Shown here one piece after another: positions 3,012 through 42,912 of a stretch of DNA of 64,000 bases. Source of the stretch: Escherichia coli (GTDB taxonomy: Bacteria; Pseudomonadota; Gammaproteobacteria; Enterobacterales; Enterobacteriaceae); the NCBI RefSeq assembly GCF_003334765.1, contig NZ_QOWT01000001.1. The stretch is one strand, 5' to 3'. The notes beneath the pieces were generated by a model that saw only the letters and a list, made by a program, of their open reading frames with translations, had not been told where the DNA came from and did no database searches. How positions within the stretch are numbered: position 1 is the first letter of the stretch; each line of letters opens with the position of its first letter. The position numbers and the translations under genes were made by a program.

Positions 3012-4607
3012 TTAATGAGCCGCTTCAGGCAGGACAAAACCCATCGCCGCATCGATAAATAATCTTTCGTCCATCAGTTTGAGTTCTGGCGAAATCACTG
3101 GGGTGAAATCCATTTTGTCGAGAATATCTTTTTGTAAATCGACGCCAGGGGCGATTTCGATTAAATGCAGGCCGTCTTCTTTCAGCGTGAATACTGCGCG
3201 CTCAGTGATATAACGAACATCCAGCCCTCGCTCGAGAGCGATTTTTCCGCTGAAAGTAATTTCCGGTAGTTCCCGAATAAATTTCTTCACCCGTCCTTCC
3301 TGGACGATATTTAATTTGCCGTCGGTAATTTCTGTTTTTAAACTGCCCGCAGTTAATGTGCCGCAGAAAATGATTTTCTTCGAAGTGGCACTGATATCAA
3401 TAAATCCACCGGTGCCCATGATTTTACCATTGAATTTATGCACGCCGACGTTACCGTGCTGGTCGACTTCAGCAAAACTCAAATAACAAACATCCAGACC
3501 GCCACCGTGATAAAAATCAAACTGGGACGTCATATCCAGAATGGCACGGGTATTCACGTTCGCGCCAAAGGCGATCCCCTGTGAAGTAATTCCGCCAATC
3601 GGACCTGTTTCTACCGTCAGAATAAAGTCATCAGCACAACCTTCTTCTCGGGCGACCAGGCCAATGCCGTCAGCAATACCGACGCCGACATTCCCCACCG
3701 CGCCTTTACGCATTTCGAATAATGCGCGCCGCGCAACTAATTTACGTTGGTTTAGGGGCAGGCTAAGTTTGGTACTGTCATCAAGGGTGAAGTCACCAGA
3801 AATAAAGCGGTTAACCGGTGCACCGCCATACAGTTGGGTTTGATCCGGATCGACCACCACAATATCCACCAGATAACCCGGAATACGGACAGATTTAGGA
3901 TGCAGCGTGGCTTTCTTAACCATTTTCTGCACCTGCATCATCACAATACCGCCGTTATTGTGCACCGCCTGGGCAATAACCAATGCGTCGAGATACATCA
4001 CCTCATCTTCAAAAGTGGCGTAGCCTTCACTGTCGCAGGTGGTAGCGCGAATGAAGGCAATATCTGGCGCAATCGCTTTGTAATAGAGATATTCTTTGTT
4101 ATCAAACTCGACCAGTTTAATCAGGTCTTCTTTAGTGACTTCATTCAGTTTGCCGCCTTGCTGGCGTGGATCGACAAATGTCCCGATGCCAATATCACTA
4201 ATAATACCAGGCTGGTGGGCTGCGGCGGCGCGTAAGGTTTGTGTAAGTACACCTTGTGGGTAGTTATAAGCAATAATTTTATTTTGTTCTGCGAGTTCAG
4301 AAATACGCGGCGATTGTCCCCAGTGACCACATAATGCCCATTTCACCAGACCTTCTTGCGCCAGAGGACTAATACCACGGTCGGCGCGATCGCCAAGCCC
4401 TGTTGGACTAATAATCGATAAATTACGTGGTGTTTGAGTCTGTTTATATTTATCAGCAAGAGCAGTAATTAACGTGGTGGCTTCCAGAATACCGCCTCCA
4501 GCGCCTAACACACAAAGTGTTGCTTCGTCGGGAATATAATTCACCGCTTCCTGTGCCGACAGGACCGGCACTCGTCCATTAATACGAGGTGGTTTTACAG
4601 GTTTCAT
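3012..4607 (-). CDS. ydiF: Family I CoA-transferase (acetate/short-chain acyl-CoA transferase, fused alpha/beta)
   Basis: 531-aa ORF that I recognise as E. coli YdiF; immediately upstream of ydiO on the same strand. Confidence 0.85.
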   Translation of the reverse strand: MKPVKPPRINGRVPVLSAQEAVNYIPDEATLCVLGAGGGILEATTLITALADKYKQTQTPRNLSIISPTGLGDRADRGISPLAQEGLVKWALCGHWGQSPRISELAEQNKIIAYNYPQGVLTQTLRAAAAHQPGIISDIGIGTFVDPRQQGGKLNEVTKEDLIKLVEFDNKEYLYYKAIAPDIAFIRATTCDSEGYATFEDEVMYLDALVIAQAVHNNGGIVMMQVQKMVKKATLHPKSVRIPGYLVDIVVVDPDQTQLYGGAPVNRFISGDFTLDDSTKLSLPLNQRKLVARRALFEMRKGAVGNVGVGIADGIGLVAREEGCADDFILTVETGPIGGITSQGIAFGANVNTRAILDMTSQFDFYHGGGLDVCYLSFAEVDQHGNVGVHKFNGKIMGTGGFIDISATSKKIIFCGTLTAGSLKTEITDGKLNIVQEGRVKKFIRELPEITFSGKIALERGLDVRYITERAVFTLKEDGLHLIEIAPGVDLQKDILDKMDFTPVISPELKLMDERLFIDAAMGFVLPEAAH

Positions 4608-4749
4608 TGTTAATTCCTGATTCAGATGTGATTTTCCCTACGCCAAATGGAGAATTAGCGCACAGAGACTCACGAAATATTTTTATTAAATACGATTGAA
4701 TATATTTTTTAGTTCGGCGGGGAGGGTGTTCCCGCCGAAATATTATTGC

Positions 4750-5508
4750 TTATGCCTGGTGTAAAATAGTTAATACCGTGCGCAAATCATTTACCGAGAT
4801 TTGCCCTGGCGCAGACGCTTTTTTTACCGCACCAAAAGTTGCCGCCGAGCCAAATACTTCACCAGCCAGACGAGAAATTACGCCAGTTTTTGCCATCGAC
4901 ATCGTGATAATTGGACGATCGGCATACTGCTCCTGCATCTCCAGGGTCGCGGCAAGCAACGTCAGCACATCGCTGGTACTTTGCGGCATCAGCGCAATCT
5001 TAGGAATATCGGCGTCGAAGGATTGCATTTTGCGCAGACGGGCAATGATTTCTTCGGCTTCCGGCGTTTTATGGAAGTCATGGTTGGACATGACTACTTT
5101 CACATCATGCGCGTGGGCGTAGGCGACGGTTTCTTTAACCTGATCATCACCGGTAAATAACTCCAGATCGATCATATCAACCAGGCCGCTGTCGATGGCT
5201 GCACGATTGAGTGCAATATAAGCCTCGGTGGAAATCGCCTGCTCGCCGCCTTCTTTGGCACTGCGGAAGGTAAACAGCAGCGGTTTTTCTGGCATGGTCT
5301 CACGGAGAATTTTTGCTGCCGCCATGACAGACTCCACATTGGAGAGGTCGGCATAGTGGTCCACACGCCATTCCAGAATATCAAAGTCCGCTTCACGATA
5401 GGCGAGAGCTTCGGATTTCACGCTGGCGATATCTTTCGCCATCAGCGAGACGATGATTTTAGGTGCGCCCGTACCAATGACGAGATCTTTTACAGTTACG
5501 GTTTTCAT
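4750..5508 (-). CDS. aroD: 3-dehydroquinate dehydratase, type I
   Basis: 252-aa ORF ([30 protein letters not shown]…) matching AroD. Confidence 0.92.
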
Positions 5509-37602: not shown

Positions 37603-37641
37603 TCTGAAATCGCCCCCGGAGAGGGGGCGATAGAATAGCCT

Positions 37642-40404: not shown

Positions 40405-41337
40405 ATGTGGTCAGAATATTCACTCGAAGTTGTTGATGCGGTAGCGCGTAATGGTAGTTTTAGCGCTGCGGCACAGGAGCTGCATCGCGTTCCTTCTGCG
40501 GTCAGCTATACCGTGCGTCAGCTGGAAGAGTGGCTGGCGGTGCCGCTCTTTGAACGACGGCACCGTGATGTGGAGCTGACCGCTGCTGGAGCGTGGTTTC
40601 TCAAAGAAGGGCGCTCTGTTGTCAAAAAAATGCAGATCACCCGCCAGCAATGTCAGCAGATAGCGAACGGCTGGCGCGGTCAGTTAGCTATCGCAGTGGA
40701 TAATATTGTCAGGCCAGAACGTACACGGCAGATGATCGTTGATTTTTATCGCCATTTTGATGATGTCGAACTTCTTGTCTTTCAGGAAGTGTTCAACGGT
40801 GTCTGGGATGCGCTTTCCGACGGGCGCGTGGAACTGGCGATTGGCGCAACACGCGCGATTCCGGTAGGCGGTCGTTATGCCTTCCGGGATATGGGGATGC
40901 TAAGCTGGAGTTGCGTTGTTGCCAGTCACCACCCGCTGGCGTTGATGGATGGCCCGTTCAGCGATGATACGTTGCGCAACTGGCCGTCGTTGGTGCGCGA
41001 AGACACCTCGCGAACGCTACCTAAACGTATTACCTGGTTGCTGGATAACCAAAAAAGAGTTGTCGTGCCTGACTGGGAATCATCGGCAACCTGTATCTCG
41101 GCAGGATTATGCATAGGGATGGTGCCAACACATTTCGCCAAACCGTGGCTTAATGAGGGGAAGTGGGTAGCATTAGAACTGGAAAACCCCTTTCCGGATT
41201 CGGCATGTTGTCTGACATGGCAGCAAAATGATATGTCGCCTGCGTTAACCTGGTTGCTTGAGTATCTCGGCGATAGTGAGACGCTGAATAAGGAGTGGCT
41301 GCGGGAGCCGGAAGAGACTCCCGCAACGGGTGATTAA
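40405..41337 (+). CDS. ydhB: LysR-family transcriptional regulator (PunR)
   Basis: 310-aa ORF with an N-terminal wHTH ([23 protein letters not shown]). Confidence 0.85.
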
Positions 41338-42359
41338 CGACGATAGTCGCGGAACGGGCCGTCAGCCACGGAGCGGCGTTCAATCAAGCGCGGATGCACT
41401 TCAATAGACTGCGGTTCTTCACGTTTGTTGACGATACGATCCAACAGCATGTTGAACGCTGTTTCACCCAGCGAATCTTTTGGCTGATGGATCGTGGTCA
41501 GCGCCGGCGTAAAATAGCGCGCGTTGCGCACGTTATCATAACCGATCAGCGAAACATCCTGCGGGACGCGCAGGCCCATTTCATCAGCAGCACAAAGTGC
41601 GCCCATTGCCATGATATCGCCACCACAGAAGACGGCAGTAGGGCGATGCGGCTGCGACAGGATTTGCTGCATGGCGCGATAACCGGATTCAGGTTCAAAG
41701 TCACCCTGCACAATCCAGCTTTCCGGCACCTTGATCATCGCTTCTTCCATCGCCTTCATAAAACCGGCAAGGCGGCCTGCGCCGGTGTTACGTTCCAGCG
41801 GGCCGGGGATGACGCCGATTTCGCGGTGACCGCGTTCAATCAGATAACGCCCGGCCATGTAGCCGCCTTCGAACGCGTTATCAATGACCGCATCGGTGAA
41901 GTCAGCTTTTGCTTCACCCCAGTCCATGACCACCATTGGGATATGGCGATACTCTTCCAGCATCGCCAGCAACGGCTCTGGGTACTCAGAACACATCACC
42001 AGCAGACCATCGACGCGTTTTTGCGCCATCATCGACAGATAAGCCCGCTGTTTCTCAAGATTGTTCCACGCATTGCCCAGAATCAGGGTGTAACCTTTCT
42101 GGAAGCAATTTTTTTCAACTGCTTCAATGATCTCGGCAAAATAGGCCGCTTCGCTGCTGGTCGCCAGCAAACCGATAGACTTGGTGTGGTTAACCTTCAG
42201 GCTACGCGCCACCGCGCTAGGGGAGTAGTGTAATTCTTTAATCGCTGCCCACACGGCGTTGCGCGTTTCTTCAGCGACGAAACGTGTTTTGTTGATCACG
42301 TGTGACACAGTTGTAGTGGAAACGTTTGCTCGTTTCGCTACATCTTTTATTGTTGCCAT
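41334..42359 (-). CDS. purR: Purine repressor, LacI family
   Basis: 341-aa [58 protein letters not shown]…. Confidence 0.95.
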
Positions 42360-42402
42360 TCCATTTCACTCCAGACCCTAACTTCAGCTCCTGCAAAATC
42401 GC

Positions 42403-42418
42403 AAGGTAAACGTTTGCC
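42403..42418. promoter_or_regulatory. PurR operator (PUR box) in the purR leader
   Basis: Minus-strand reading GGCAAACGTTTACCTT matches the PUR-box core (ACGCAAACGTTTTCNT); purR autoregulation is established. Confidence 0.55.
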
Positions 42419-42657
42419 TTTACACACCTTACGCACAACAAAAGTGTTGCGGTACGCCGGAAAAACGACACGGAGCGTCAGGAAGGGGTCAATGGCCAGT
42501 ACGCAAATAGTGTAAGCGTGGAATTTTGGCCGATCTTGACGAAAAGGGGAAGTGGTAAAAACACTTATCATTATAAATGACGGGAGATTTTTTCATCACA
42601 GTGTGTAAAAATGCGTAATATCACTTTTTGTGTGGTAATAAAAAAGGAGAAAACTTG

Positions 42658-42747
42658 ATGAGCACCGACCTTAAATTTTCACTGGTAACAACGATTATCG
42701 TCCTCGGTTTGATCGTAGCCGTGGGTTTGACTGCCGCGCTGCACTGA
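42658..42747 (+). CDS. ynhF: Small single-TM membrane protein (29 aa)
   Basis: ATG…TGA encodes MSTDLKFSLVTTIIVLGLIVAVGLTAALH, preceded by a GGAGA RBS; below the ORF-track size cut-off. Confidence 0.7.
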   Translation: MSTDLKFSLVTTIIVLGLIVAVGLTAALH

Positions 42748-42912
42748 TTTCCTCTCGAGGGAGCGCGTTCTCCCTCGCATCTCCTTCCTGTTTGTTAGCA
42801 AAATGGCAAAAGTGTTTTCTCTTTTTGTTATTTTCATTTTTTTGTGATTGCTGTCATGCTTTCGCCACTTTAATGAATATCGCGTAATGACGCGAAGAGG
42901 TGGAGATAAGGC

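Follow-up and report, generated by a model that had tools for sequence, protein, structure and literature searches.

A conserved RNA hairpin in the last codons of punR at the convergent purR/punR junction of Escherichia coli

The genes purR and punR (formerly ydhB) of Escherichia coli converge so closely that their stop codons overlap. With no spacer between them, transcription of either gene has to enter its partner, and an earlier note on this DNA saw in this arrangement scope for interference or antisense effects between a purine repressor and a regulator of purine-nucleoside transport. The locus thus raises the question of how far each transcript intrudes on the other gene, what bounds the intrusion, and whether the overlap itself has a role.

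The overlap and the two genes

The stretch of DNA analyzed here (the window, 64 kb in length) is from E. coli K-12, and its 2.3-kb purR-punR region is 100% identical to K-12. Direct reading of the sequence shows that the tetramer TTAA (t41334 t41335 a41336 a41337) contains both stop codons, which have 2 nt in common (41335-41336), whereas the coding sequences have 4 nt in common (Table 1). RefSeq agrees with the stop-codon overlap described in the earlier note and presents the same 4-nt overlap in K-12 W3110, with punR at 3106-4038 (+) and purR at 4035-5060 (-) of the extracted locus (L001). The 2.3-kb region is found in 5,425 of 5,426 complete E. coli genomes and is annotated as purR and punR (= ydhB) in 5,424 of them, and the 91-nt junction is found in 5,424 of the 5,426. 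In E. coli HB101 (NZ_CP178859.1), an IS30 insertion splits an otherwise identical 2.3-kb region into two pieces.

The gene names given in the earlier note, purR and ydhB, were right, as shown by the K-12 identity, the RefSeq annotation, and the Pfam domains of PunR (HTH_1 at residues 7-62 and LysR_substrate at residues 88-290). The RefSeq product name is "DNA-binding transcriptional activator PunR," and PunR is the activator of punC, a divergent purine-nucleoside transporter gene (PMC8376909). Open reading frames, RefSeq, Pfam, and homologues in 78 species together identify purR and punR as two genuine coding genes on opposite strands, with overlapping 3' ends.

Table 1. Positions of features at the purR/punR junction (window coordinates)
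Feature	Position	Strand	Description	Basis
punR (ydhB) CDS	40405..41337	+	310 aa, LysR-type activator of punC, TAA 41335-41337	ORF list, RefSeq
purR CDS	41334..42359	-	341 aa, purine repressor, TAA = + strand TTA 41334-41336	ORF list, RefSeq
TTAA	41334..41337	.	4-nt coding overlap	Sequence; equal YTAA overlap in 30/78 related species
Inverted repeat	41298..41327	.	12-bp stem + 6-nt loop	Folding, conservation, TRS Supplementary Data 3
Extra PunR codons E304-D310	41314..41334	+	Seven codons (E T P A T G D)	PunR C-termini/lengths, 78 loci
Primary purR mRNA 3' ends	41293..41296	-		Term-seq (PMC7815308) + TRS (PMC10687069)

Other sites in and around the two genes were recorded. Codons 71 to 79 of punR (40615-40641, +) form a block, TCTGTTGTCAAAAAAATGCAGATCACC, in which synonymous sites are essentially invariant: TCT, ATC, AAA, AAA, CAG, and ATC are 98 to 100% identical in 74 Enterobacteriaceae loci, in which third positions elsewhere are only ~50 to 60% conserved. 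Residual synonymous entropy of punR gives z values of -2.3 to -3.3 in 15-codon windows starting at codons 61 to 72. The block holds an A7 run, an in-frame ATG (M76), and a GATC, and a weak terminator-like motif lies on it at 40644..40632 (-); Term-seq lists no 3' end at 40615-40641 (PMC7815308). In purR, synonymous variation is strongly depleted over codons 1 to 28 (42276-42359, -; z down to -4.2), and a PurR-box-like palindrome (42404-42419; AGGCAAACGTTTACCT on the - strand) is situated 45 to 60 nt upstream of the purR ATG. These two features agree with the known autoregulation of purR via operators downstream of its promoter. Term-seq 3' ends are found 11 nt upstream of the purR ATG and 108 nt into the open reading frame (PMC7815308). 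A 396-bit match to Rfam STnc550 ("enterobacterial sRNA") starts next to the purR start codon (42360-42750, +) and spans the whole purR-cydH intergenic region together with the 29-codon cydH (ynhF; 42658-42747), so that this "sRNA" family represents the mRNA of cydH with its leader. Past cydH, at MG1655 1737422, lies a 3' end of very high abundance (PMC7815308). Farther away, a 112-bit match to the Rfam "antisense RNA HPnc0260" (33487-33649, +) overlaps a tRNA-Val gene on the opposite strand, one of a tandem pair (33614-33687 and 33695-33768, -), and most likely reflects complementarity to the tRNA rather than a separate gene.

The purR 3' end and the hairpin inside punR

Two independent published 3'-end maps were placed on the window by the conversion 41334 - (x - 1738869), where x is the MG1655 position; the 61-nt strings given in the Term-seq data set span -50 to +10 around each 3' end (PMC7815308). 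Term-seq reports an end at MG1655 1738907/8 that is primary for purR, antisense to ydhB, and present in two of three growth conditions (PMC7815308, supplementary file 1). The TRS map, in which purR occupies 1737844-1738869, gives the primary purR 3' end at 1738909/10 (PMC10687069). These ends lie 38 to 41 nt past the last base of the purR stop codon and 2 to 5 nt past the stem of the inverted repeat. Published 3'-end mapping, the kind of check that the earlier note had proposed for read-through, places the main purR end inside punR, in codons E297 and W298 (PMC7815308, PMC10687069). The claim that transcription reads into the partner gene holds for purR in both maps, but the intrusion is only ~40 nt. 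Since the purR read-through is short and bounded by a conserved hairpin, the purR mRNA is complementary to only ~42 to 45 nt of the punR coding sequence. Neither map lists a ydhB/punR 3' end, possibly because of low expression (PMC7815308, PMC10687069), and the bicyclomycin-based list of Rho termination has no entry between MG1655 1738600 and 1739999, which may merely reflect low expression (PMC7815308).

The functional element at the junction is a conserved RNA hairpin in the last punR codons, which the earlier note missed. In the purR sense, this GC-rich RNA reads GUUGCGGGAGUC-ucuucc-GGCUCCCGCAGC and starts 6 nt beyond the purR stop codon. It lies wholly within punR, beginning at the third base of codon W298 and ending in codon T308, and the TRS study prints the same hairpin (Supplementary Data 3; PMC10687069). 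Folding in the purR sense gives -23.2 kcal/mol (z = -6 against dinucleotide shuffles, with 0 of 200 shuffles as good), and folding in the punR sense gives -15.9 kcal/mol, as two G-U pairs turn into C-A mismatches. The hairpin is thus a stable stem-loop able to form in both K-12 transcripts, and it has no U tract. It is single copy, with a median of one place per E. coli genome, and is not a REP element.

The conservation of the hairpin was analyzed in one genome per species, which gave 80 Enterobacteriaceae loci with a PurR 92 to 100% identical to the query, 78 of them usable. In all 78, punR is convergent with and immediately adjacent to purR, and a GC-rich hairpin of 8 to 14 pairs is found 0 to 19 nt beyond the purR stop codon. 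The 10 nt past the stem contain only 1 to 5 U across the 78 species, and none has a U tract. Folding of the hairpin species by species gave a median z of -4.75, with 97% of the loci below -2. The stems vary while complementarity is kept, as in GGAGC/GCUCC, GACGC/GCGUC, GGUGC/GCACC, GGCGC/GCGCC, and GGGGC/GCCCC.

Alignment of 79 junction sequences with MAFFT followed by RNAalifold returned no structure; the stem register and the loop length drift between genera, so that the 5' arms are misaligned by MAFFT. This full alignment was replaced by a covariance model derived from a subset without gaps. In the 19 sequences that MAFFT aligned without gaps, 85.5% of the cells are paired, versus 34 to 49% when the partner column is slid. 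In the covariance-model alignment of 79 sequences, 85.8% of the cells are paired, versus 35 to 51% in slid controls, and 8 of the 12 pairs changed on both sides (63 cells), which 0 of 500 shuffles reach; this alignment is fitted to the structure and leans towards it, and the sequences are related, so that the figures overstate independence. Despite the fitted alignment and the related sequences, the direction of the conservation is clear. Averaged over species, the stability of the hairpin is the same on the two strands (-20.9 versus -20.5 kcal/mol), and it could thus act in both transcripts. Strand-specific selection in favor of the purR-sense RNA, suggested by 35 G-U versus 3 A-C cells in the inner stem, was rejected: the alignment was fitted in the purR sense, and the alignment-free folding that gave these averages is symmetric (37 versus 40 species, Wilcoxon P = 0.43).

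The position of the mapped end at the base of a strong stem could suggest a canonical Rho-independent terminator of purR encoded in punR, purely intrinsic in its action and with the mapped end as the true release site. The stem is strong, GC-rich, and conserved, the 3' end is sharp and follows directly after it in two data sets (PMC7815308, PMC10687069), for about 21 of the 58 convergent overlaps of E. coli a terminator of this kind is predicted inside the partner gene (PMC2174442), and the list of Rho-termination regions has no entry there (PMC7815308). However, the tail that follows the stem, CACUCCUUAUUC, has no U run, in line with the 1 to 5 U per 10 nt of the 78 species. The site was not flagged by a consensus terminator scan, and the mapped end, at 2 to 5 nt past the stem, falls outside any U tract. 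Canonical intrinsic termination is rather unlikely for these reasons. Another possibility is that the palindrome works at the level of DNA, as the binding site of a dimeric protein or as a REP-like repeat, and not as an RNA hairpin. This would agree with a near-perfect inverted repeat that is on average equally stable on both strands, but the arm sequences differ between genera with complementarity kept, and the element, at whose base an RNA 3' end has been mapped, occupies a median of one place per genome. Arms that diverge while pairing is kept, with a drifting register and loop length, form the pattern of a structure rather than that of a sequence-specific site, and the probability of a DNA-level element is close to negligible.

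The punR stop codon across species and readings of the overlap

To locate the punR stop codon, each frame was walked from its start to the first stop in the 78 loci. These loci are related, so that the resulting split of 47 loci with a gap, 30 with a 4-nt YTAA overlap, and 1 with a long overlap is not a count of independent events. The gap between punR and purR is 0 to 33 nt, mostly 14 to 19 nt, and in 46 of the 47 gapped loci PunR is 303 aa long, with the punR stop codon in contact with the hairpin loop; the exception is Yokenella, with 309 aa. The gapped group includes Enterobacter, Lelliottia, Kluyvera, Raoultella, Kosakonia, Phytobacter, and Citrobacter gillenii. In the YTAA group PunR has 310 aa (309 and 312 aa in one locus each), and this group includes Escherichia, Salmonella, most Citrobacter, Leclercia, and Silvania, as well as Trabulsiella, Pseudocitrobacter, Pluralibacter gergoviae, Intestinirhabdus, and Entomohabitans. 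The sole long overlap is that of Klebsiella pneumoniae, in which punR appears to stop 74 nt inside purR, giving a PunR of 334 aa. In this locus (L069, strain ATCC 13883, ~3953-4026) there is no loop stop, and the punR frame is out of register with the TAA of purR. Overlaps of 50 to 122 nt in Kosakonia, Franconibacter, Phytobacter, and others were discarded as an artifact of tblastn aligning through in-frame stop codons.

The 310-aa form of PunR equals the 303-aa form plus the seven codons E304 to D310, which the 46 related species with a 303-aa PunR lack. These codons span the last two bases of the loop, the downstream arm (41316-41327), and a 6-nt spacer. The residue that follows W-L-R in PunR varies (E, T, V, A, or G) alongside compensating changes in the opposite arm. 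Since this residue covaries with the stem and the last Pfam domain ends at residue 290, the constrained feature appears to be the RNA structure, with the PunR tail free to vary. On the other strand, 77 of the 78 relatives have CGT-TAA or CGC-TAA at the end of purR, and one has CGT-TGA. Reverse-complemented, YTA gives TAA or TAG, and any opposite-strand frame in that register must therefore stop there. This comparison of sequences suggests that the 4-nt overlap is the state without an in-frame loop stop, not a selected feature, and that it would most likely be an incidental read-through of one hairpin arm.

The junction is likely to be one of ordinary, tightly packed convergent genes that share one hairpin, with the stop-codon overlap most likely a by-product. 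The hairpin would define and protect the purR 3' end, probably as a site where RNA polymerase pauses or stops; alternatively, the polymerase may go slightly further before Rho or a converging polymerase releases it, and exonucleases would then trim the RNA back to the stem. The RNA past the hairpin in the purR sense is moderately C-rich and G-poor, with a C/G ratio of 1.5 to 2.0 in 78-nt windows, one of which exceeds the 95th percentile of the 64-kb window. In the type represented by Escherichia, Salmonella, and Citrobacter, the loop has no in-frame stop, so that PunR would run seven codons further, through the hairpin arm, to the next in-frame stop, which is supplied by the purR end. In the opposite direction, no conserved terminator was found beyond the shared hairpin in 80 related loci, and the RNA past the punR stop codon is not C-rich for ~200 nt. 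Transcription of punR probably continues into purR as antisense RNA, without a dedicated conserved terminator, and such read-through is plausible. A candidate punR-side terminator, a hairpin with a T run ~120 nt beyond the punR stop codon (41457-41473, +), was rejected as a chance match: it is terminator-like at homologous codons in only 3 of 80 related loci, and its stem is broken in another E. coli strain.

A regulatory role of the overlap would instead have the converging polymerases collide, or the paired 3' ends cut by RNase III, so that purR and punR are reciprocally coupled in the manner of an excludon. The purR mRNA does cover 42 to 45 nt of the punR coding sequence, and with no conserved punR terminator inside purR and no mapped punR end, read-through is plausible. 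The genes are adjacent in all 78 species and functionally related (PMC8376909). As the columns of a published per-gene table of total RNA are understood here, purR antisense seemingly amounts to ~7 to 33% of its sense, and ydhB antisense to ~6 to 25% of its own sense but only ~3 to 7% of purR sense (PMC7373196, Table S1). Against this, both regulators are weakly expressed and collisions would be rare. Double-stranded RNA reads captured with p19 appear modest, at 13 to 85 for purR and 6 to 22 for ydhB (PMC7373196), whereas the top 13.5% of genes reach 100 reads per million or more. Synonymous variation over the last 45 purR codons is normal, with no extra constraint, and no hidden conserved elements were found in them. 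Nor is the length of the overlap conserved: its range is -74 to +33 nt, and 47 of the 78 loci lack an overlap. Overlap is in any case found in about 75% of the convergent operons of E. coli (PMC4161252), and the PunR study reports no such effect or link (PMC8376909). Reciprocal coupling through the overlap is improbable on this balance, the interference or antisense effect raised in the earlier note finds no specific support, and the 4-nt overlap itself carries no demonstrated function. A translation-gated two-way boundary is a further conceivable arrangement, in which ribosomes on punR would melt the hairpin as the polymerase passes and allow an antisense run-on over purR, and in which untranslated punR transcripts would stop at the hairpin. 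The placement of the punR stop codon in or just beyond the hairpin is conserved. If true, such a boundary would tie the synthesis of the purine repressor to that of the activator of purine-nucleoside uptake, but this reading is highly improbable.

The junction has little significance beyond annotation. The overlap is already known, as it is present in every E. coli K-12 annotation, and because the purR 3' end is also recorded in two public atlases, the finding as such is not new. The locus is nevertheless a clean, well-conserved case in which the same DNA provides the C-terminal codons of one gene and the 3'-end hairpin of its convergent neighbor. It also shows how a 4-nt stop/stop overlap arises and disappears, with the stop codon toggling between the hairpin loop and the YTAA of the partner; this toggling around a conserved hairpin embedded in coding sequence is a small descriptive addition to the known classes. 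A practical warning follows for strain construction: deletion of punR (ydhB) or a C-terminal tag on it takes away or breaks up the hairpin at the purR 3' end, and PunR is truncated when a deletion of purR reaches past the stop codon. Such alleles of either gene may thus give mixed phenotypes.

Comparison with known convergent arrangements

The purR/punR overlap is not unusual and needs no special explanation. Four-base YTAR overlaps are the commonest convergent overlap among prokaryotes, and CTAA, TTAA, CTAG, and TTAG form the characteristic peak of convergent overlaps in published surveys (PMC2174442). E. coli has 58 convergent overlaps, 21 of them with a predicted terminator within the partner gene (PMC2174442), and RNA-seq revealed complementary 3' ends in 276 of 370 convergent operons (~75%), with a mean overlap of 286 nt (PMC4161252). 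The 10 convergent pairs of coding sequences in the window are separated by -4, 0, 11, 39, 40, 42, 46, 50, 63, and 161 nt, so that 3 of the 10 are at 11 nt or less: purR/punR (-4), sodC/ydhK (0; 56069/56070), and ydhT/ydhS (11; 31457-31467). With spacers of 0 and 11 nt, the terminators of the latter two convergent pairs must sit inside the coding sequence of the partner.

The 4-nt stop/stop overlaps are thought to arise via stop-codon loss and 3' extension (PMC2174442). The junction has the same geometry, with TTAA in E. coli and CTAA where purR ends in CGC-TAA, and the relatives fit an origin by 3' extension, with a 303-aa PunR that stops in the loop and a 310-aa PunR. Nothing essential is different, except that the extension crosses one arm of a conserved hairpin and that both states alternate among genera. 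The junction also resembles the partner-embedded terminators described by Lillo and Krakauer in 2007 (PMC2174442), since the purR 3'-end element lies in the punR coding sequence and the same bases code and regulate. Those terminators are predicted canonical Rho-independent ones, whereas the purR hairpin has no U tract. With excludons and other overlapping-untranslated-region antisense systems (PMC7154746, PMC12288877), purR/punR shares the convergent arrangement and complementary 3' ends. Excludons, however, have long overlaps and demonstrated mutually exclusive expression, and the mapped overlap here is ~40 nt.

Bidirectional hairpin terminators between convergent E. coli genes were reportedly found by SEnd-seq in the work of Ju et al. 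from 2019. Terminators of this hairpin type have been described as neither intrinsic-like nor Rho-dependent, with pausing and polymerase collisions proposed as the cause (Wang et al., bioRxiv 2022.10.23.513370). The purR/punR hairpin is likewise GC-rich, situated between convergent genes, not intrinsic-like, and without listed Rho dependence. It differs in that only the end in the purR direction is mapped and in that the hairpin lies in coding sequence and not in a spacer; moreover, with purR and punR weakly expressed, the collisions of that model should be infrequent. A useful local comparator is found in the convergent neighbors ribE (ribC) and cfa, whose 39-nt spacer (37603-37641) holds one GC hairpin, TCGCCCCC-ggaga-GGGGGCGA, a textbook bidirectional hairpin without U tracts. 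Ends are mapped there both ways, at 1742565-8 (-) for ribC and 1742597-600 (+) for cfa (PMC7815308, PMC10687069), and each reaches within a few nucleotides of the stop codon of the partner.

In a further class, Rho terminates transcription and the transcript is then trimmed at its 3' end as far as a protective stem-loop (Dar and Sorek 2018, PMC6061677). At purR, too, the 3' end is found at the foot of a stable stem-loop that lacks a U tract, and the RNA downstream is moderately C-rich and G-poor, although no bicyclomycin-sensitive region is reported at the purR site (PMC7815308). Two of these classes fit the purR end: Rho-dependent termination followed by trimming to the stem, or a bidirectional terminator of the hairpin type.
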